Notes under the pieces: model-generated | Databases searched by the model: none | Seen by the model: the letters and a program-made list of their open reading frames with translations, nothing else | What the model was told of the DNA's origin: nothing | From: Magnetococcales bacterium | GTDB taxonomy: Bacteria > Pseudomonadota > Alphaproteobacteria > UBA2136 | Length of the DNA: 53,776 bases | Assembly (NCBI GenBank): GCA_002689455.1 | Contig: NZGE01000015.1 | Location: forward strand, 1-53,776 | Direction: 5' to 3' | Translations under genes and position numbers: made by a program | Shown here: positions 44,493-49,224 of the stretch, piece after piece | Numbering within the stretch: position 1 is the first letter of the stretch | Layout of the letters: each line of letters begins with the position of its first letter

Positions 44493-46397
44493 GTGGAATT
44501 TTTACAACTAATGCTCATTTTACCGTGGGTTTTTGCATTTGTTTTAACAGGCAGGTTTACGCTTCGCTTTTTTGGTATTACACATTTAAAGGGTATTTCG
44601 TCTTTCACCTTTAACTACTGGGCAGGCTTTTCAATCATCAGCCTTATTCTTTTCATATACACAAGCTTATTTACATTGAATCTAACCGCAGTTACTTCTA
44701 TATTTTCAATTGCATTTCTTGGCTTCTTACCAAGTAAAACACAAACAATGAAAAGCCACTTTAAGTCATTTGATCAAGGTCATTTGCTTAGTTCTTTATT
44801 TGTGCTTGCATGCCTTATCACCCTACCTGCAGCCATGACAGCCCCACTAGCTGGCTCAAGCCTAGAATATCACCTAGCCATTCCCAAAGCTATCGCTGAA
44901 ACAGGCGAAATGTCACTAACAATGGATAGTTTTATTCAATCAGGCCCCCTATTATCACATAACATAAGCGCCGCTGCATATTTAGCAGGCGGTGAAAAGT
45001 TGATGATGTTACATGGCTGGTCACTATTCTTACTTTCTGGGTTAGCTGTTTTCACATTGGCACGCCGCCGTTTACGTGTGGGTTCTTCATGGATTTTCAC
45101 ATCATTGGTTATGAGCTTACCCGCATTAACTTACAGTGCAGGAAGTGGCATTATAGAACCAAGACTTTTAGGGCTTGTAACACTGGCTGCTTTTTCTCTT
45201 ATTTACTACGCACGCAGTGAAAAGCTTTCATGGCTTGTTTTAAGCGCATTGTTTATTGGTACAGCAGCGCAAATGCATATTATTGGTATATTTACCTACA
45301 TGGCCTTTTTAATAACCGCCATCTTAATCCAAAAAGACTTTGGCCTTAAAAAAGGTCTTAGTCACTTTGCATTATTTACCATTTTATGCACATTTATTTC
45401 AGCACCTTTTTATCTTTGGGCGTACTCTGAAACGGGTAAAGTTCTTATTCCGTTTATGAACGACCTTTCAGGTATGACAGGCTGGAGCGATATGCAACAA
45501 GCTTTATATAACCAAGAAGCTTTAACGCAATCAAACTTTGTAGAGCGCACAAAGTCAAACTGGCTATTCACTTACCCACTTGCAATGACCCTAAAAGCCA
45601 AAGAATGGGGCACAAGCCACCTTGGATTGGGACCCTTATTTTTAATGTCGCTTATACCTGGCCTTATCCTTGTATTTAAAAGGTTTTCATACATCAGTCC
45701 AATAGCTAAACCAATAGGCACACTTGAGCTTCACGTTTACCTATTCATGACCTTTTATGCACTTTGGTTCTTTTATGGCATGTCTATGGAACCACAAAGC
45801 CTGATACCAATGCTACCTCTACTTATGCTTCCAGCATGGGTTATGGCGGAAACACTCATTGCACGCAGCTCATTTGCCATTCGAAGCAGCATTATCACAG
45901 CAACCTTTGCAATCATGGCTGTACAATATGGTATTTCATCTAAGTTAAACCAACCTGCCATAGCGCTTTTCTTTAAAAAAATACCTTTAGAAACTTACAT
46001 TGCATATAACATGCCTGAAGTAAACGTAGCTCAATATTTAAAGCGCACCATGAATGATGGCGATAAAGTACTCTACACGCAAAACGGTAAAATGAACTAT
46101 GTGCTTGGACGTAAAGGGTTTTATGCCCCAGCCGTATTCCAAGAAAAAATCCCAGTTGCATTTGGCACAAGCACCGATATTATCAACAGTGCTTTAAGTG
46201 AAAATATAACCATGTGGGTTACTGAAAATGATGCGACAAACCCAAGCTACGACAGTGACTTTAACGCACACAAACACCTAAGAAAACTTATAAATTACGG
46301 CTGCTTTAGAGAAGACGGTTACATTGAACCTGTCCCGAATAAAAGTTTTTACGTGTATAGGTTTATTCACAATTGCCAAGGCCGTGCAACGTTATAA
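44493..46397 (+). CDS. Polytopic membrane protein, GT-C (ArnT/PMT-like) glycosyltransferase-like
   Basis: Many TM helices, LEYHLAIPK loop motif, soluble C-terminal domain; GTG start. Confidence 0.6.
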   Translation: MEFLQLMLILPWVFAFVLTGRFTLRFFGITHLKGISSFTFNYWAGFSIISLILFIYTSLFTLNLTAVTSIFSIAFLGFLPSKTQTMKSHFKSFDQGHLLSSLFVLACLITLPAAMTAPLAGSSLEYHLAIPKAIAETGEMSLTMDSFIQSGPLLSHNISAAAYLAGGEKLMMLHGWSLFLLSGLAVFTLARRRLRVGSSWIFTSLVMSLPALTYSAGSGIIEPRLLGLVTLAAFSLIYYARSEKLSWLVLSALFIGTAAQMHIIGIFTYMAFLITAILIQKDFGLKKGLSHFALFTILCTFISAPFYLWAYSETGKVLIPFMNDLSGMTGWSDMQQALYNQEALTQSNFVERTKSNWLFTYPLAMTLKAKEWGTSHLGLGPLFLMSLIPGLILVFKRFSYISPIAKPIGTLELHVYLFMTFYALWFFYGMSMEPQSLIPMLPLLMLPAWVMAETLIARSSFAIRSSIITATFAIMAVQYGISSKLNQPAIALFFKKIPLETYIAYNMPEVNVAQYLKRTMNDGDKVLYTQNGKMNYVLGRKGFYAPAVFQEKIPVAFGTSTDIINSALSENITMWVTENDATNPSYDSDFNAHKHLRKLINYGCFREDGYIEPVPNKSFYVYRFIHNCQGRATL

Positions 46398-46496
46398 AAT
46401 CATACAAAAGGGGCAAAACATTTAAAACAAACAATAGCTTATTTCATATAGGATTTTTTTAGAAAATAATTATTGTTTTAGGGTTGAAGTTTATCC

Positions 46497-46515
46497 ATTA
46501 TTTTCATATATGAAA
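46497..46515. repeat. 19-bp repeat copy 1 / putative operator
   Basis: ATTATTTTCATATATGAAA, containing the perfect palindrome TTTCATATATGAAA; identical to 48257-48275. Confidence 0.8.
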
Positions 46516-48153
46516 GTAACAGACAAAAAAAACCCATACATGAAACCGGACCTAAAAATGGATACATTATTCAGAAATATTGCCAAACAGCTAAAAAAAG
46601 CAATTGAAGAAAAAGATATTTCTATTTCAGAACTTGCTAAAAAAGCAGATGTATCCGATGCCACACTAAGCCGTATTTTATCAGGTGAGGCCAACCCTTC
46701 TTTTGATAAAATTGTACGTATTGCAAAGTCCTTAGAAATAAGCCTAGACAAACTAACGGGCTTACCTATTAAGGAAGTGGAAAGTAACGCCCCCACCCTT
46801 GAGCAAGAGGATTATTCAAATGAAACCGACATTCTAGCCAGTTTTGAAATAAGCGATACAGACTTAACACCTTCCCAAGCATCTCGTATGCTTACAAGCG
46901 CTGCCAACGGCACATGGATAGCGCACCCACACGACAGTTTGATTAAAGAAAACACACCGCGTGTTAAGCCTATTTTTTGCATGCAAACTGGCACACGTAA
47001 AATATGTGTGGATTTAGCATTCCCACACACCTACGTTGAAGAAGGTTCCATTGCCAGCCTTATTGGTGTTATTGGTTCAGCCCTTGCAGGTACACAAGCC
47101 AAACTTATGGATATTCGCATACCTACAGCGTTGGTGCGCACCTTTAAAGCCCCTTTTAATGGCAGACAATCTATTTTGGAAAAAATGTCTGAAACCCCCC
47201 GCCCGTTGCTAAGCGTGACCATGCGCCCTATGACAGGCTTAACACCACAGCACTATGCAGATACTGTATATAAATTGCTAAAAAACGGTGTTGACTTCAC
47301 ATGCGACCCCACCATGATGCATTCACTTCCTGAACACGACTTTCGTGAGCGTGTAAACCGCATTGCAGAAGTAATCAATGAGCTAAAATATGAAGAGTCA
47401 CTTCGAAATAAGCACCACATGGTGAATGTAAGTGCAGCCACCACAGAAGAAGTGATTGACCGTGCACGCCATGCTGTTTATGCAGGGTTAAAATACCTAT
47501 TAATCGACACCTCCGCAACGGGCTTTAGCACACTACAAAGCCTACGTAAATTTGCAGAAGAACATGACGTTATTATTGCAGCCATGGGCGCCCGTGGCAT
47601 GCAAACAGCCACCATGAGCGAACAAGTTATTGCAAAACTTTTACGCTTTGCAGGGGCAGATATTGTAAGTATTCCAAGCCCGCTAGGGGAAAGCTTTCAA
47701 AACTCACGCCGTCAAGTTAAAGGAACTATTTTATCCCTTATCGGTGATGACCCAATTGCGCAAGACCACTTAGGCCTTTCCTTCGACCAACCAACACTTT
47801 GCATGAAACAATCCATTCCAGCAGTTGGTGGTGGGCACAACCCATGGCACTTTCCACGCATTATAGACACGGTAGGCGCAGGCTGCATTATTCAATGTGG
47901 CGCCAATGTTATGAGCCATCCAAACGGCATTGAAGCAGGTGCAAAAGCAAATATTGCAGCCGTTACAGCGCTGATGGAAGCATCCAAAAAGGGCCAAAGC
48001 CTTGCCGTTGAAGGAAAGAAGATATTGCAAGAATCCGCAAGACACAATGAAGCCTTAAAAGAAGCCTTAAAACATTGGAGCGAAGGCGCATTTCTATTTG
48101 GGGTTATTGAAGGCGACAAAACCAACATATCAGGCACCATTAAGGTCGTATAA
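46510..48153 (+). CDS. XRE-family HTH fused to a catalytically degenerate Form I-like RuBisCO large-subunit domain
   Basis: aa ~24-84 HTH_3 (SELAKKADVSDATLSRILSGEANPS); aa ~104-530 collinear with RbcL (TDILASF, GTW, EEGS, RPLL, GVDFTCD, AKLLRFAGAD, GLSFDQ, HPNG...AGAKAN). True start may be Met11 or Met17. Confidence 0.9.
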   Translation: MKVTDKKNPYMKPDLKMDTLFRNIAKQLKKAIEEKDISISELAKKADVSDATLSRILSGEANPSFDKIVRIAKSLEISLDKLTGLPIKEVESNAPTLEQEDYSNETDILASFEISDTDLTPSQASRMLTSAANGTWIAHPHDSLIKENTPRVKPIFCMQTGTRKICVDLAFPHTYVEEGSIASLIGVIGSALAGTQAKLMDIRIPTALVRTFKAPFNGRQSILEKMSETPRPLLSVTMRPMTGLTPQHYADTVYKLLKNGVDFTCDPTMMHSLPEHDFRERVNRIAEVINELKYEESLRNKHHMVNVSAATTEEVIDRARHAVYAGLKYLLIDTSATGFSTLQSLRKFAEEHDVIIAAMGARGMQTATMSEQVIAKLLRFAGADIVSIPSPLGESFQNSRRQVKGTILSLIGDDPIAQDHLGLSFDQPTLCMKQSIPAVGGGHNPWHFPRIIDTVGAGCIIQCGANVMSHPNGIEAGAKANIAAVTALMEASKKGQSLAVEGKKILQESARHNEALKEALKHWSEGAFLFGVIEGDKTNISGTIKVV

Positions 48154-48162
48154 ATCTTAAAA

Positions 48163-48249
48163 ATTTGATGCGTATCATACGCATATCATACGAAAAAAAG
48201 GTGCATCACCAACGTATCGGTGCGTTCAATACGCATCAAATACGCATCA
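48163..48249. repeat. Cluster of ATACGCAT motifs, direct and inverted
   Basis: Copies at 48168-75 (reverse), 48177-84, 48229-36, 48240-47; 13-bp inverted repeat 48163-75 / 48229-41. Confidence 0.75.
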
Positions 48250-48256
48250 CGGACAA

Positions 48257-48277
48257 ATTATTTTCATATATGAAAAT
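48257..48277. repeat. 19-bp repeat copy 2 / putative operator
   Basis: ATTATTTTCATATATGAAA; perfect 18-bp palindrome ATTTTCATATATGAAAAT at 48260-48277. Confidence 0.8.
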
Positions 48278-48370
48278 TAATACGAAACATATGGCGTATG
48301 AAACCTGCACAAAGCACCAATGATAAAGAAACGGAAAAGATATTGTATTTACAGATTCTTTCTTAAAGCC

Positions 48371-48405
48371 AATAAAAAAGGAGGCTAATCGCCTCCTTTT
48401 TTATT
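48371..48405. terminator. Bidirectional terminator overlapping the stop of the convergent gene
   Basis: AATAAAAAAGGAGGC-TAATC-GCCTCCTTTTTTATT. Confidence 0.8.
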
Positions 48406-49224
48406 TTCCTGTGGTAACTCTGGAATAATCTTCAAGCGGTTTTCTGGTTCTTCCAACAGTCGCTTTAATGCTTTAACCTTGGTAACACCACTGTCGCCCA
48501 ACCTATCCACCGTTTGCAGAAAGCTTTGGTATGCAAAAGGTGTTAAAAGAGAAGATAAATATTCTGCGTAAATTTCATTGCTTAAAGGCTCTACTTCTTT
48601 ATGCAACTTATGCTTTTTAAGGCTTTTATCATCACGCAAAGTTTCTACCGTAAAATCACTTCGATCAAGCAGGCTATATGAATGTAAAGGCATTCCCATT
48701 AAACTACCAACCGCCTTTGAAACCACATGCACCGAACAAGGGTTTGACAACTTCTGCCCTGTTATATGTGCCAGTGCAATGTTAATTCGTGAAATATCTG
48801 TCATATTAAAATGCATTTTTTCACCTAATTTTTGTGAAGCAAACACCTCTTTACAGTCAACTTCATTGGTGGAAAGCCCCCAGCTGTGCGTATCGAACCC
48901 TATAAACATTTTGTCACGCCCTGGGTTGCGTGAAAAACGAGCTTTAGGTAACGAACGTTCTAAAGGTACAACGTTAAAGCTATATGCTTTTTCGTAATCT
49001 TCTTTGGTAAAAATAAACTGCGCCTTGCGAGTGTCGTAGTAATATTCACCCTTTAAAGGTAAACCAGAAAGCTTCGCCACACCTTCATCATCTACTTCAA
49101 TGTAAAATGTTAAATATGCGTCCTTAATTTTCATGCCGTATCCAGCAAAAGCCTCACTTACAAAAAAAAGTGAAGATAAAAGCATAAAAAAGATTGTTTT
49201 TTTAATGTTGGCAGTTGATTTCAT
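48385..49224 (-). CDS. Hypothetical exported protein
   Basis: Sec signal peptide ending AFA; no family recognised. Confidence 0.75.
   Translation of the reverse strand: MKSTANIKKTIFFMLLSSLFFVSEAFAGYGMKIKDAYLTFYIEVDDEGVAKLSGLPLKGEYYYDTRKAQFIFTKEDYEKAYSFNVVPLERSLPKARFSRNPGRDKMFIGFDTHSWGLSTNEVDCKEVFASQKLGEKMHFNMTDISRINIALAHITGQKLSNPCSVHVVSKAVGSLMGMPLHSYSLLDRSDFTVETLRDDKSLKKHKLHKEVEPLSNEIYAEYLSSLLTPFAYQSFLQTVDRLGDSGVTKVKALKRLLEEPENRLKIIPELPQENKKGGD

Follow-up and report, generated by a model that had tools for sequence, protein, structure and literature searches.

The ORF at 46510..48153 of the window (the whole 53,776-nucleotide stretch of DNA analysed) encodes a protein in which an XRE-type helix-turn-helix (HTH) domain is fused to a body resembling the RuBisCO large subunit (RbcL) that has lost all three metal ligands. 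With moderate confidence, the fusion protein is read here as a one-component transcription factor that regulates its own gene and whose body descends from Form I RuBisCO but is catalytically dead, with a putative phosphometabolite pocket and, in most of its order, an RbcS-like partner. The initial annotation had proposed that the RuBisCO fold was exapted in a DNA-binding regulator. The core of this idea, a non-catalytic module, is supported because the metal-binding triad is lost family-wide, both domains are under purifying selection, the phylogenetic tree and the AU test agree with it, Calvin-cycle context is missing and the palindromic operator candidate is conserved. The proposal was nevertheless incomplete, since it overlooked the RbcS-like partner.

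The ORF was confirmed as annotated. All three Pfam domains exceed their cut-offs in the HMM search that the initial annotation had recommended (Table 1), and both RuBisCO large-subunit superfamily profiles are matched over full length. The architecture described there, an XRE HTH joined to an RbcL-like body, is corroborated by concordant Pfam, NCBIfam and PDB matches. In the PDB, the RuBisCO large-subunit entries 7qsw and 8u66 rank first (E about 1e-58), ahead of plant and cyanobacterial Form I chains; PDB RbcL chains align to residues 96–533 at E 2e-58. Among the NCBIfam models, NF003252 (rbcL, Form I type) scores highest with 256.1 bits, short of its cut-off of 438 bits; genuine Form I references reach 594–791 bits. 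Lower scores were obtained for the type III (183 bits), MtnW (121/95 bits) and Form II (65 bits) models. The translation start is probably Met17 (46558) or Met11 (46540) and not the annotated ATG, because close homologues begin at the Met17 equivalent and the palindromic operator candidate overlaps the annotated ATG.

Table 1. Features of the fusion-gene locus (window coordinates)
Feature	Position	Strand	Details
Operator candidate O1 at the gene's 5' end: the perfect 14-bp palindrome TTTCATATATGAAA	46502..46515	.	The genome has just one other exact copy (O2)
HTH–RbcL-like fusion ORF	46510..48153	+	547 aa as annotated; Pfam, homologue alignment
XRE/Cro-C1-type HTH DNA-binding domain, residues 28–82	46591..46755	+	HTH_3 PF01381, E 8.5e-14, 51.8 bits (cut-off 23), full profile 1–55; PF13443, E 9e-9
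Linker between HTH and RuBisCO body, residues 83–100	46756..46809	+	Weakly conserved, of variable length in the family alignment
RbcL N-terminal-domain-like region, residues 101–207	46810..47130	+	RuBisCO_large_N PF02788, E 4.4e-4, 20.9 bits (cut-off 20.7); W66 equivalent retained, those of E60 and N123 substituted
RbcL C-terminal (barrel) domain-like region, residues 222–523	47173..48078	+	RuBisCO_large PF00016, E 5.7e-42, 144 bits (cut-off 30.1), profile 5–299/299
Stop codon preceded by a conserved C-terminal tail (…EGAFLFGVIEGD…)	48079..48153	+	F528, L529, F530 and G531 invariant in the family alignment
Operator candidate O2, second exact copy of TTTCATATATGAAA, 109 bp past the stop codon	48262..48275	.	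About 20 nt (AATTATTTTCATATATGAAA) in common with the O1 region
Perfect hairpin with 15-bp arms and A/T-run flanks between convergent genes	48371..48405	.	Inverted repeat, 100% complementary

Catalytic positions were assigned by alignment with Form I sequence P0064, in which the motifs lie at a constant offset of +7 from spinach numbering; the numbering and the list of catalytic RuBisCO residues follow common usage. The window protein carries E60→S130 and N123→A191 in the N-domain, the barrel lysine replacements K175→R239, K177→M241, K201→C265 and K334→E394, and further D203→P267, E204→T268, H294→M359 and H327→S387. The metal ligands K201, D203 and E204 are thus all replaced. These ten changes had been recognised in the initial annotation, which had also listed a change of R295 to glycine. 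The latter does not hold: the L-INS-i alignment pairs R295 with R362, which is invariant in the family, and this phosphate-binding arginine may be retained. Throughout the family (24/24 sequences), K175 is replaced by R, D203 by P, H327 by S and S379 by G. None of K201, D203, E204, K175, H294 and K334 is retained in any of the 24 sequences; the same six residues are kept in 18/18 Form I references, or 17/17 with one partial reference gapped. Having lost the carbamylated lysine, the two acidic Mg ligands and the residues of acid/base catalysis, the protein would be unable to carry out carboxylation or enolisation by the RuBisCO mechanism. The suggestion that the cysteine found in place of K201 senses redox state or metal was rejected, since this position varies (C in 15, A in 8 and F in 1 of the 24 sequences).

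Other parts of the site have been preserved. In the barrel region, T173, D198, N241, D268, the R295-aligned arginine and G380/G381/G403 are retained. Among 25 family sequences 37–89% identical to the window protein, the pocket residues R239, D262, D266, H271, K301, N306, D333, R362, S387, S390, R400, R401, Q427, H443, N444, Q462, C463 and H470 are invariant. With its glycine phosphate cradle, the R295-aligned arginine and many invariant polar residues, the pocket is predicted to bind a phosphorylated metabolite, and this fossil site probably still does so in a manner that modulates DNA binding. The window's clade may deviate from the family norm in its pocket, because 21 of 143 positions conserved in the rest of the family are altered there, including G404 and the loop-6 region.

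The same invariant residues would fit a precise active site no less than a site for ligand binding, which leads to the alternative of a bifunctional enzyme-repressor: an RLP-type body with a new chemistry free of carbamate and Mg, whose HTH ties expression to substrate supply (cf. PutA, BirA and NadR). Known RuBisCO-like proteins (RLPs) catalyse diverse non-carboxylase reactions, and the fusion protein has sub-threshold matches to the MtnW and OiaX models of NCBIfam. However, to our knowledge, the characterised RLP chemistries all rely on the Mg/carbamate enolisation machinery, and here not one of the 24 sequences keeps K175 or any of the three metal ligands. The variation of the K201 position (C/A/F) would also be unusual for a catalytic centre, and no conserved metabolic neighbours were found except the RbcS-like gene. 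An enzyme-repressor is hence considered unlikely.

The relationship to Form I was studied with a careful ML tree of 73 rows, which included the window protein, 23 of the 60 homologue clusters of the family, 13 of 30 Form I loci, 12 of the retrieved Form IV-like loci and 20 of 150 listed representatives. The fusion family (support 100/100), Form I (100/98) and the two together (100/100) were all recovered. The family branches beside the 18 small-subunit-bearing Form I rows, as their sister group and not nested within them (100/100). Its long stem (1.16) could conceal an origin inside crown Form I, the Form I references sampled including no named Form I', I'' or I-alpha sequence. The next outgroup, P0084, is closest to PDB 7qsv, 8u66 and 6ura, Form I-related enzymes without a small subunit. 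The 12 Form IV references cluster apart from the fusion family, and grouping the family with Form IV, a group defined for the AU test after the tree had been seen, was rejected (p-AU 0.0012; constrained tree 62.2 lnL units worse). The fusion protein shares 28–31% identity with proteobacterial Form I RbcL and 21–25% with Form IV RLPs. The earlier impression that it is nearer to Form I than to Form IV is thereby borne out. It would qualify as an RLP under a loose functional definition (a non-carboxylating homologue with a substituted active site), but its sequence does not place it in the Form IV clade.

An RbcS-like gene (PF00101), typically right behind the fusion gene, is present in all 25 genomes of the order that belong to other genera than the window's. 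All six RbcS-like genes tested with PF00101 match (E 1e-16 to 7e-25), and the gene lies downstream on the same strand in 24/24 genomes with both genes on one contig (coordinates compared by eye). Since the family is normally accompanied by this partner, it can be regarded as descending from the complete Form I enzyme, L and S together. Against a profile built from the RbcS-like proteins of the family, RbcS of the two Form I sub-clades scored about equally (62–82 bits), with no hint of a "red" versus "green" small-subunit origin, these labels being a guess from tree position and RbcS length. No RbcS-like match was found in any of the four genomes of the window's genus, the window's own included, and this genus has lost the gene. 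The initial statement that no rbcS lies nearby is accordingly correct for the window and its genus and incorrect for the rest of the family.

The fusion gene is nearly universal in this uncultured alphaproteobacterial order. Full-length or contig-truncated copies occur in 26 of 29 species genomes; two of the others contain a stub, and one (54% complete) contains none. The fusion protein has 60 homologue clusters, 57 of which list both PF01381 and PF00016. Homologues 98% and 89% identical to the window protein are present in other metagenome assemblies, and the DNA itself was found in sequencing runs from 13 studies. An assembly chimera, a concern raised in the initial annotation, is rejected on the grounds of the 60 clusters, the 26 genomes, the runs of 13 studies and an RNA-library contig bridging the HTH and the N-domain; the fusion is real. 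Compared with the nearest species (G001) over 532 codons, the gene shows pN 0.158 and pS 0.707, i.e., dN/dS of about 0.08, with about 0.12 for the HTH and 0.075 for the RbcL-like part. Purifying selection thus acts on both domains.

The window's genus is nevertheless an atypical lineage, in which the partner has been lost and the gene is partly decaying. Two of its four species (G002 and G003) have only a 0.7–0.8 kb stub of the L gene at the syntenic site, still carrying the conserved C-terminal tail. Together with the absence of the RbcS-like gene from all four genomes and the 21 altered positions of the clade, the stubs could mean that the fusion gene of the window's lineage is a leftover heading for loss, with no current function. 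The intact reading frame and the excess of pS over pN argue against such decay, as do the 98% and 89% identical proteins of other assemblies, the perfect operator candidates, the DNA in runs of 13 studies and the RNA-library contigs matching parts of the ORF, and we regard this explanation as very improbable. Although its partner is gone, the window's genus keeps the L fusion under strong purifying selection.

The N-terminal HTH is predicted to recognise the 14-bp palindrome in the gene's own promoter (TTTCATATATGAAA; TTSCA-N4-TGSAA in the family), and the product of the fusion gene seems to act on this site, judging from the distribution of the palindrome. Exactly two copies exist in the 1.61 Mb genome, both flanking the fusion gene and 1.76 kb apart, and the reversed-pattern control gave none; this genome-wide count, made with the exact palindrome of the window itself, is the only operator test free of consensus circularity. 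The downstream copy may have arisen by partial duplication of the control region at the 5' end. Operator tests in relatives took loci L009–L036, with L002–L008 omitted as duplicates of the same genomes and L034 (no full ORF) and L037 (a spurious 17-residue match) dropped. An upstream-window site within two mismatches of TTYCATATATGRAA is present in 11 of 27 orthologous loci; across the entire loci there are 18 such sites, 15 of them in the upstream window. Exact TTBCA-N4-TGVAA occurs upstream in 12 of 25 loci (L031 and L035 were left out for want of a proper upstream window) against a mean of 0.40 and a maximum of 3 for random windows in 1000 draws, an enrichment that is partly circular because the consensus was widened after inspection of the orthologous upstream regions. 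By these criteria, about half of the orthologous loci are without a clear upstream site. The upstream sites are often paired, about 21 bp apart. In relative G444 the only site is upstream of the fusion gene, and in G443 the top-scoring and only exact site is likewise.

Site scans of the window's genome and of relatives revealed no regulatory target beyond the fusion gene itself, and a regulator controlling itself alone would be an incomplete story. Three one-mismatch palindromes in the window's genome lie in or at the edge of unrelated genes and were rejected as probable chance occurrences, as were the extra sites in relative G442 (8 versus 3 in the control), which lie in coding regions; one pair of them, spaced by 21 bp, falls within a small coiled-coil ORF in an apparent prophage region. 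The hairpin between the convergent genes downstream is likely to be a bidirectional terminator, and a simple terminator scan did not list it. Rfam gave nothing above gathering scores over 46300–48500.

The RbcL-like body would supply the geometry for binding such a palindrome. Every RuBisCO form makes an obligate head-to-tail dimer, and by analogy the body is expected to form one and to set two HTHs on the two half-sites. In most of the order, the RbcS-like small subunit may join L in a higher-order L/S assembly. Another alternative is a pure scaffold, in which the RuBisCO body (with RbcS where present) only oligomerises HTHs and the product is a DNA-bridging, nucleoid or looping protein with no small-molecule input. 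RbcS holds L2 dimers together in Form I, so the retention of an RbcS-like subunit in all 25 genomes outside the genus would suit a scaffold, as would the pairing of operator candidates about 21 bp apart in several loci and the two identical candidates 1.76 kb apart that flank the window gene. A scaffold would, however, have no need of the conserved pocket lining (phosphate-cradle glycines and the R295-aligned arginine), and the genus lacking RbcS still keeps the L fusion at dN/dS of about 0.08. The probability of this alternative is judged to be low, and an autoregulatory factor with a ligand pocket remains the preferred reading.

The neighbours of the fusion gene include dnaE, ABC-transporter-like genes, efp and an inositol-monophosphatase-family gene, and the position among housekeeping genes is conserved in the genus and partly across the order. 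No conserved metabolic neighbours were found besides the RbcS-like gene. The initial annotation had noted the absence of prk nearby, and this extends to the whole 86%-complete genome, in which no PRK-family gene (PF00485) was matched; nor was a second RuBisCO_large (PF00016) homologue found there besides the fusion gene. A search for an ATP/ADP translocase (PF03219) is uninformative, since its control gave no match anywhere. XRE HTHs are frequent in phage repressors and antitoxins, the fusion protein has sub-threshold NCBIfam matches to RstR-, HigA- and HipB-type models, and a TIR–RLP fusion exists elsewhere in the superfamily (P0098). It is hardly credible, however, that the gene belongs to a mobile-element, toxin–antitoxin or phage-defence module merely using an XRE HTH, given its conserved chromosomal site among housekeeping genes such as dnaE and efp, its near universality in the order and the lack of any integrase, toxin partner or mobile-element gene among its conserved neighbours.

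Contigs assembled from four RNA libraries are 100% identical to parts of the ORF. They are a weak hint of expression, with DNA carry-over as a possible source, and their lack of coverage at 48082–48447 is informative in neither direction.

A broader version of the preferred reading is offered tentatively, at a fairly low probability: a whole Form I holoenzyme (L+S) would have become a multivalent transcription factor or nucleoid protein with up to eight HTH arms, reading a sugar-bisphosphate-type metabolite via the fossil site, as a core-gene relic of autotrophy in a heterotrophic order with reduced genomes. RuBisCO ranks among the best-studied enzymes. If the autoregulatory reading is true, the protein would be the first known case of a RuBisCO pseudoenzyme and of a transcription factor made from RuBisCO, and its body a new class of effector domain for bacterial one-component regulators. 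The lineage would stand apart in belonging to the L+S Form I side, in having wholly lost the metal site, and in having gained a DNA-binding domain while being maintained by purifying selection in organisms that lack a Calvin-cycle context. It also presents a natural experiment on RbcS without catalysis, the subunit being kept in 25/25 genomes outside the window's genus and lost in a genus with 21 altered L positions. The family may mark past autotrophy in this reduced-genome alphaproteobacterial order and, if its tree position is not a long-branch effect, would be an independent early witness of the L–S partnership that bears on the origin of the small subunit.

Among known systems, the closest in sequence is Form I RuBisCO (RbcL8-RbcS8), with which the family shares collinear full-length N- and C-domains, the sister position in the tree and a downstream PF00101 homologue. 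The fusion protein differs from it in its NF003252 score (256 vs. the required 438 bits), the loss of K175, K177, K201, D203, E204, H294, H327 and K334, the N-terminal HTH, a genome without a PRK-family gene and, in the window's genus, the missing small subunit. Form IV RLPs (the MtnW/YkrW enolase and OiaX-type decarboxylases) are likewise non-carboxylating members of the superfamily in heterotrophs; the fusion family is separate from them in the tree and differs in its lost metal site, RbcS-like partner and HTH. The characterised RLPs that we know of are enzymes far from Form I that keep the carbamate/Mg site and have neither a small subunit nor a DNA-binding domain. The SSUL modules of cyanobacterial CcmM and activase-like proteins also employ the RbcS fold outside catalysis, binding active RuBisCO in carboxysome assembly, whereas the RbcS-like protein described here accompanies a dead, DNA-binding L in organisms in which no active RuBisCO was found.

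With XRE/Cro-C1 one-component regulators, the fusion protein shares the N-terminal PF01381 HTH and a palindromic candidate site at its own promoter region. Full-text literature searches found no description of an XRE regulator with a RuBisCO body, and no prior description of the HTH–RbcL fusion family was found in the literature searched. Passages of four RuBisCO-diversity papers (10.64898/2026.09.21.753380, PMC13454268, PMC12663927 and PMC11707681) mention no HTH, fusion or DNA binding, and the supplements of these surveys may include the clade; according to PMC12663927, about 5,000 RLPs were filtered out. A functional analogy is offered by the MocR/GabR regulators, which combine a DNA-binding domain with a whole, head-to-tail dimerising enzyme fold that binds an effector, and which use repeated promoter sites. 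GabR, as described in PMC5734734, is a wHTH regulator with a fold-type-I aminotransferase-like effector domain. The folds and HTH classes are unrelated: a GntR wHTH and a PLP fold in MocR/GabR correspond to an XRE HTH and a RuBisCO barrel here, and the Pfam search of the fusion protein gave neither a GntR nor an aminotransferase match. Moreover, MocR domains retain their cofactor, whereas the fusion family has lost the RuBisCO metal site.

The HTH plus RbcL architecture proposed in the initial annotation, and the ORF that carries it, were both confirmed by an ORF check and a profile search with HTH_3, RuBisCO_large_N and RuBisCO_large matches. The best NCBIfam model for the fusion protein is the Form I-type rbcL, at 256 bits well below its cut-off of 438; type III models score 183, MtnW 121/95 and Form II 65. 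Among PDB sequences, the RuBisCO large subunits 7qsw and 8u66 rank first (E ~1e-58, residues 96-533), ahead of Form I enzymes of plants and cyanobacteria.

Features of the fusion locus (nucleotide positions in the window unless residues are stated)
Feature	Position	Strand	Remarks
HTH-RbcL-like fusion ORF	46510..48153	+	547 aa
HTH_3 domain	residues 28-82		profile search, E 8.5e-14
RuBisCO_large_N domain	residues 101-207		profile search, marginal (20.9 bits, cut-off 20.7)
RuBisCO_large domain	residues 222-523		profile search, E 5.7e-42
Candidate operator O1, perfect 14-bp palindrome TTTCATATATGAAA	46502-46515		overlaps the annotated ATG; 26-44 nt 5' of the likelier starts
Candidate operator O2, second exact copy of TTTCATATATGAAA	48262-48275		109 nt after the stop codon
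Hairpin with perfect 15-bp arms	48371-48405		3' of the fusion gene
Neighbour of 634 aa	44493-46397	+	no Pfam match; multi-pass membrane protein by eye
Neighbour of 279 aa	48385-49224	-	no Pfam match; signal-peptide-like N-terminus
Antisense ORF of 101 aa	46491-46796	-	overlaps the HTH-coding region; probably a shadow ORF, without support

The fusion gene is real, conserved and under purifying selection. A word-indexed protein search returned 60 homologue clusters (36-98% identity, 487-592 aa), 57 of which list both PF01381 and PF00016; P0022, a representative of one of the other three, has an N-terminally truncated HTH_3 on direct scan. The source names are generic only ('RuBisCO large subunit C-terminal-like domain-containing protein' or 'ribulose-bisphosphate carboxylase large chain'). 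In an exhaustive library of 50% representatives the family forms an isolated block of five representatives with at least 285 bits, below which stand four Form I proteins (160-181 bits) and all others at no more than 129 bits. Compared with its orthologue in the closest species (75% identical), the gene has a pN of 0.158 and a pS of 0.707, and dN/dS is ~0.08 overall, 0.12 in the HTH and 0.075 in the RbcL-like part, the ratios being approximate as dS is saturated.

The source genome measures 1.61 Mb in 75 contigs (86% complete) and belongs to an order of 29 species genomes of 0.9-1.9 Mb. A full-length fusion copy was counted in 26 of them (with one split over two contig ends, another only partly on its contig), two carry only a stub of the gene, and none was found in the remaining one, which is 54% complete and has its RbcS-like gene at a contig edge. 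No fusion was present in the 12 other genomes of the same class in the sample, outside the order, one of which has a genuine Form I L+S pair. Each of the 28 named related-locus records with a genuine match is an uncultured MAG, in most cases labelled Alphaproteobacteria. Public runs holding the window's stretch are marine (seawater, vent, seep, estuary; 13 studies), and none of the organisms concerned is a listed pathogen. One relative, G014, has two full-length copies on different contigs (G014:C3:8291-9916 and G014:C148:926-2518); its assembly contamination is 4%, and the second copy could be a paralogue or reflect a mixed bin. Four RNA libraries yielded contigs that are 100% identical to parts of the ORF; one contig covers 46535-47215 and links the HTH to the N-domain, which hints weakly at transcription. 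Separately, one RNA-library contig (run X15, depth ~9.6) has an extra A after 46592, in an A7 run of the HTH coding region, which would shift the frame; the cause could be an error of sequencing or assembly, strain variation or slippage during transcription.

The affinity of the family is to Form I. By BLASTP, the protein's identity is 28-31% with 31 Form I large subunits of Proteobacteria and 21-25% with 17 Form II or Form IV-like proteins. For the phylogeny, references were labelled with NCBIfam: Form I (P0063-66, P0074, with 13 loci among the top PF00016 matches, 28-31% identical to the window protein, assigned by ourselves), Form II (L071, L073; L070 and L072 by similarity), type-III-like (P0068, P0070-72, P0075) and Form IV (L085, MtnW-like; L075, L078, L079, L083, L084, L086 and L088, OiaX-like and sub-threshold; four further RLP-like loci by similarity). 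The IQ-TREE analysis (73 rows, 470 columns, LG+C20+F+G4 PMSF, Form II root; ultrafast bootstrap / SH-aLRT support) recovered the family (24 rows, 100/100, stem length 1.16), Form I (18 rows, 100/98), the two together (100/100) and these with the outgroup P0084 (98/87). The closest PDB entries to P0084 are 7qsv-type, 8u66 and 6ura (348-389 bits vs ~270 bits for crown Form I), which are Form I-related enzymes devoid of small subunits. A clade of the family with Form IV, a group named after the tree had been seen, was rejected by the AU test (delta lnL 62.2, p 0.0012), which supports the initially claimed likeness to Form I over Form IV. Given the long stem, the family may also have arisen within crown Form I and then diverged quickly.

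The metal and acid-base residues of the RuBisCO site are lost. Substitutions were read from an alignment of 24 family members and 18 Form I large subunits, with columns placed via the tool-derived Form I reference P0064, whose motifs lie at a constant +7 offset from the spinach numbering in which the canonical catalytic residues are given. The window protein has E60->S130 and N123->A191 in the N-domain, K175->R239, K177->M241, K201->C265, D203->P267, E204->T268, H294->M359, H327->S387 and K334->E394 in the barrel. Arg at K175, Pro at D203, Ser at H327 and Gly at S379 occur in 24/24 family sequences, and K334 is replaced by G (20), E (3) or D (1). The initially listed substitutions are therefore essentially correct, except for the loss of R295: the invariant family Arg R362 aligns there, so that R295 may be retained. 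The Cys at K201, put forward as a sensor, is not conserved: across the family this position is C in 15, A in 8 and F in 1. T173, D198, D202, N241, D268, G380, G381 and G403 are kept in all 24 sequences, and G404 in 20, being Ala in the window's clade. An enzyme-repressor with a new chemistry is considered unlikely.

Clustering of ORFs in the fetched loci revealed an ORF of 103-166 aa directly 3' of the fusion gene on the same strand, and each of the six copies tested gives a full-profile hit to PF00101 RuBisCO_small (E 1e-16 to 7e-25). With a profile of 11 copies, the RbcS-like gene was found in 25/25 of the order's genomes that do not belong to the window's genus, and in 0/4 of those that do (86-97% complete). 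The initial statement that no rbcS lies nearby is accordingly valid for the window and its genus and fails elsewhere in the order. Coordinates compared by eye place the S-like gene downstream on the same strand in 24/24 genomes with both genes on one contig, within ~0.6 kb in 23 and at 2.5 kb in one. The family is therefore derived, both subunits together, from an L+S Form I enzyme.

Within the genus, the full L fusion is present in G000 (the window's genome) and G001. In the other two species, G002 (L089:4057-4854, -) and G003 (L090:4158-4860, -), the syntenic slot, bounded by the genes for the 634-aa membrane protein and the 279-aa protein, holds a remnant of 0.7-0.8 kb. It encodes the RbcL-like N-domain fused in frame with the C-terminal tail, while HTH and barrel are gone. 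The two stubs are 47% identical across a stop-free alignment of 186 codons (pN 0.35, pS 0.81) and may persist as functional mini-proteins rather than dead DNA; neither has an operator-like site, and the G002 stub has no obvious ATG. Of 143 positions with at least 90% conservation among the other 20 family members, 21 are changed in the window's clade. Many of the changed positions are also fixed in Form I (W70, R159, K164, G166, E191, G195, A228, E234, G404, R421, E425), which would fit relaxed or shifted constraint after partner loss. That the window's copy is itself a decaying leftover is very improbable.

O1 and O2 are the only exact copies of TTTCATATATGAAA in the whole 1.61 Mb genome, where ~0.05 are expected from base composition by a back-of-envelope estimate; the reversed pattern has no copy genome-wide, and three one-mismatch sites lie elsewhere. 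The O1 and O2 regions have ~20 identical bases and a second short block in common, so O2 may well have arisen by partial duplication of the control region 5' of the gene. Among orthologous loci, 11/27 have a site within two mismatches of TTYCATATATGRAA in the 270-nt window 5' of the HTH, and 15 of the 18 such sites locus-wide fall in those windows. An exact TTBCA-N4-TGVAA site is upstream in 12/25 loci (random windows: mean 0.40, maximum 3 in 1000 draws), with 15 of 20 sites in 414 kb inside upstream windows, and pairs ~21 bp apart recur. Since the consensus was broadened once the upstream regions had been looked at, these enrichment tests are partly circular, which the whole-genome count in G000 is not. 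In a genome-wide scan of five relatives, the top-scoring site in G444 (its only one) and in G443 (its only exact one) is upstream of the fusion gene. No convincing second target was found among further palindrome-like sites in G000 and relatives. Two operator-like sites 21 bp apart at L097:1984-2256 (G442) lie inside a 90-aa coiled-coil ORF of a prophage-like region and were judged a repeated-codon coincidence.

Neighbours in the window comprise dnaE, a CBS-domain protein, efp, an inositol-monophosphatase-family gene, a PD40 protein, a HAD phosphatase and a PfkB kinase; three more (237, 411 and 418 aa), conserved in several orthologous loci, are ABC-transporter-like at a guess. None suggests a pathway link. 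G000 has one PF00016 match and, at 86% completeness, no PF00485 (PRK) match. Synteny of the 634-aa and 279-aa neighbours extends to all four of the genus's genomes, and part of the neighbour synteny is common across the order; a mobile or defence module is a highly implausible reading of such a locus. In G001 the fusion gene is separated from the 279-aa-gene homologue by a 262-aa ORF (cluster c22) present in three tandem copies. The convergent intergenic region 48154-48384, the slot where RbcS sits in relatives, contains O2, several ATACGCAT-type short repeats (~48168-48250) and a 10-codon ORF after the operator, as well as the hairpin at 48371-48405. Rfam gave no match above threshold there, and the region may give rise to a small regulated transcript or may be a relic.

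The fusion protein is probably a sequence-specific autoregulator, the HTH of which would bind the palindrome and control its own gene. The RbcL-like body could supply the head-to-tail dimer that pairs two HTHs, and higher-order L/S assemblies may form where RbcS is present. The kept phosphate cradle, the R295-aligned Arg and the invariant polar residues could make up a metabolite pocket tuning DNA binding; ligand gating itself is put forward tentatively. A ligand-free oligomeric DNA scaffold, which would leave such a pocket without a role, seems rather improbable. The combined reading, an autoregulator built on a dead Form I RuBisCO and possibly ligand-responsive, is held with reasonable confidence.

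Full-text searches and look-ups in recent RuBisCO-diversity papers brought up neither an HTH-RuBisCO fusion nor an inactive clade on the Form I side, though the supplements of such surveys may list one. Seven other unusually long RuBisCO-family representatives gave no further DNA-binding fusion. Instead, these metagenome representatives include a TIR_2 + RLP fusion (P0098, 583 aa), which hints at defence-type use of an RLP, and IF-2B-family + RuBisCO (P0147, 726 aa) and RuBisCO + APH-type kinase (P0127, 1265 aa) fusions. An HTH joined to an enzyme-derived effector domain has a known precedent in MocR/GabR, whose design principle the fusion protein matches. The use of a dead L+S Form I RuBisCO in this role has no known precedent.
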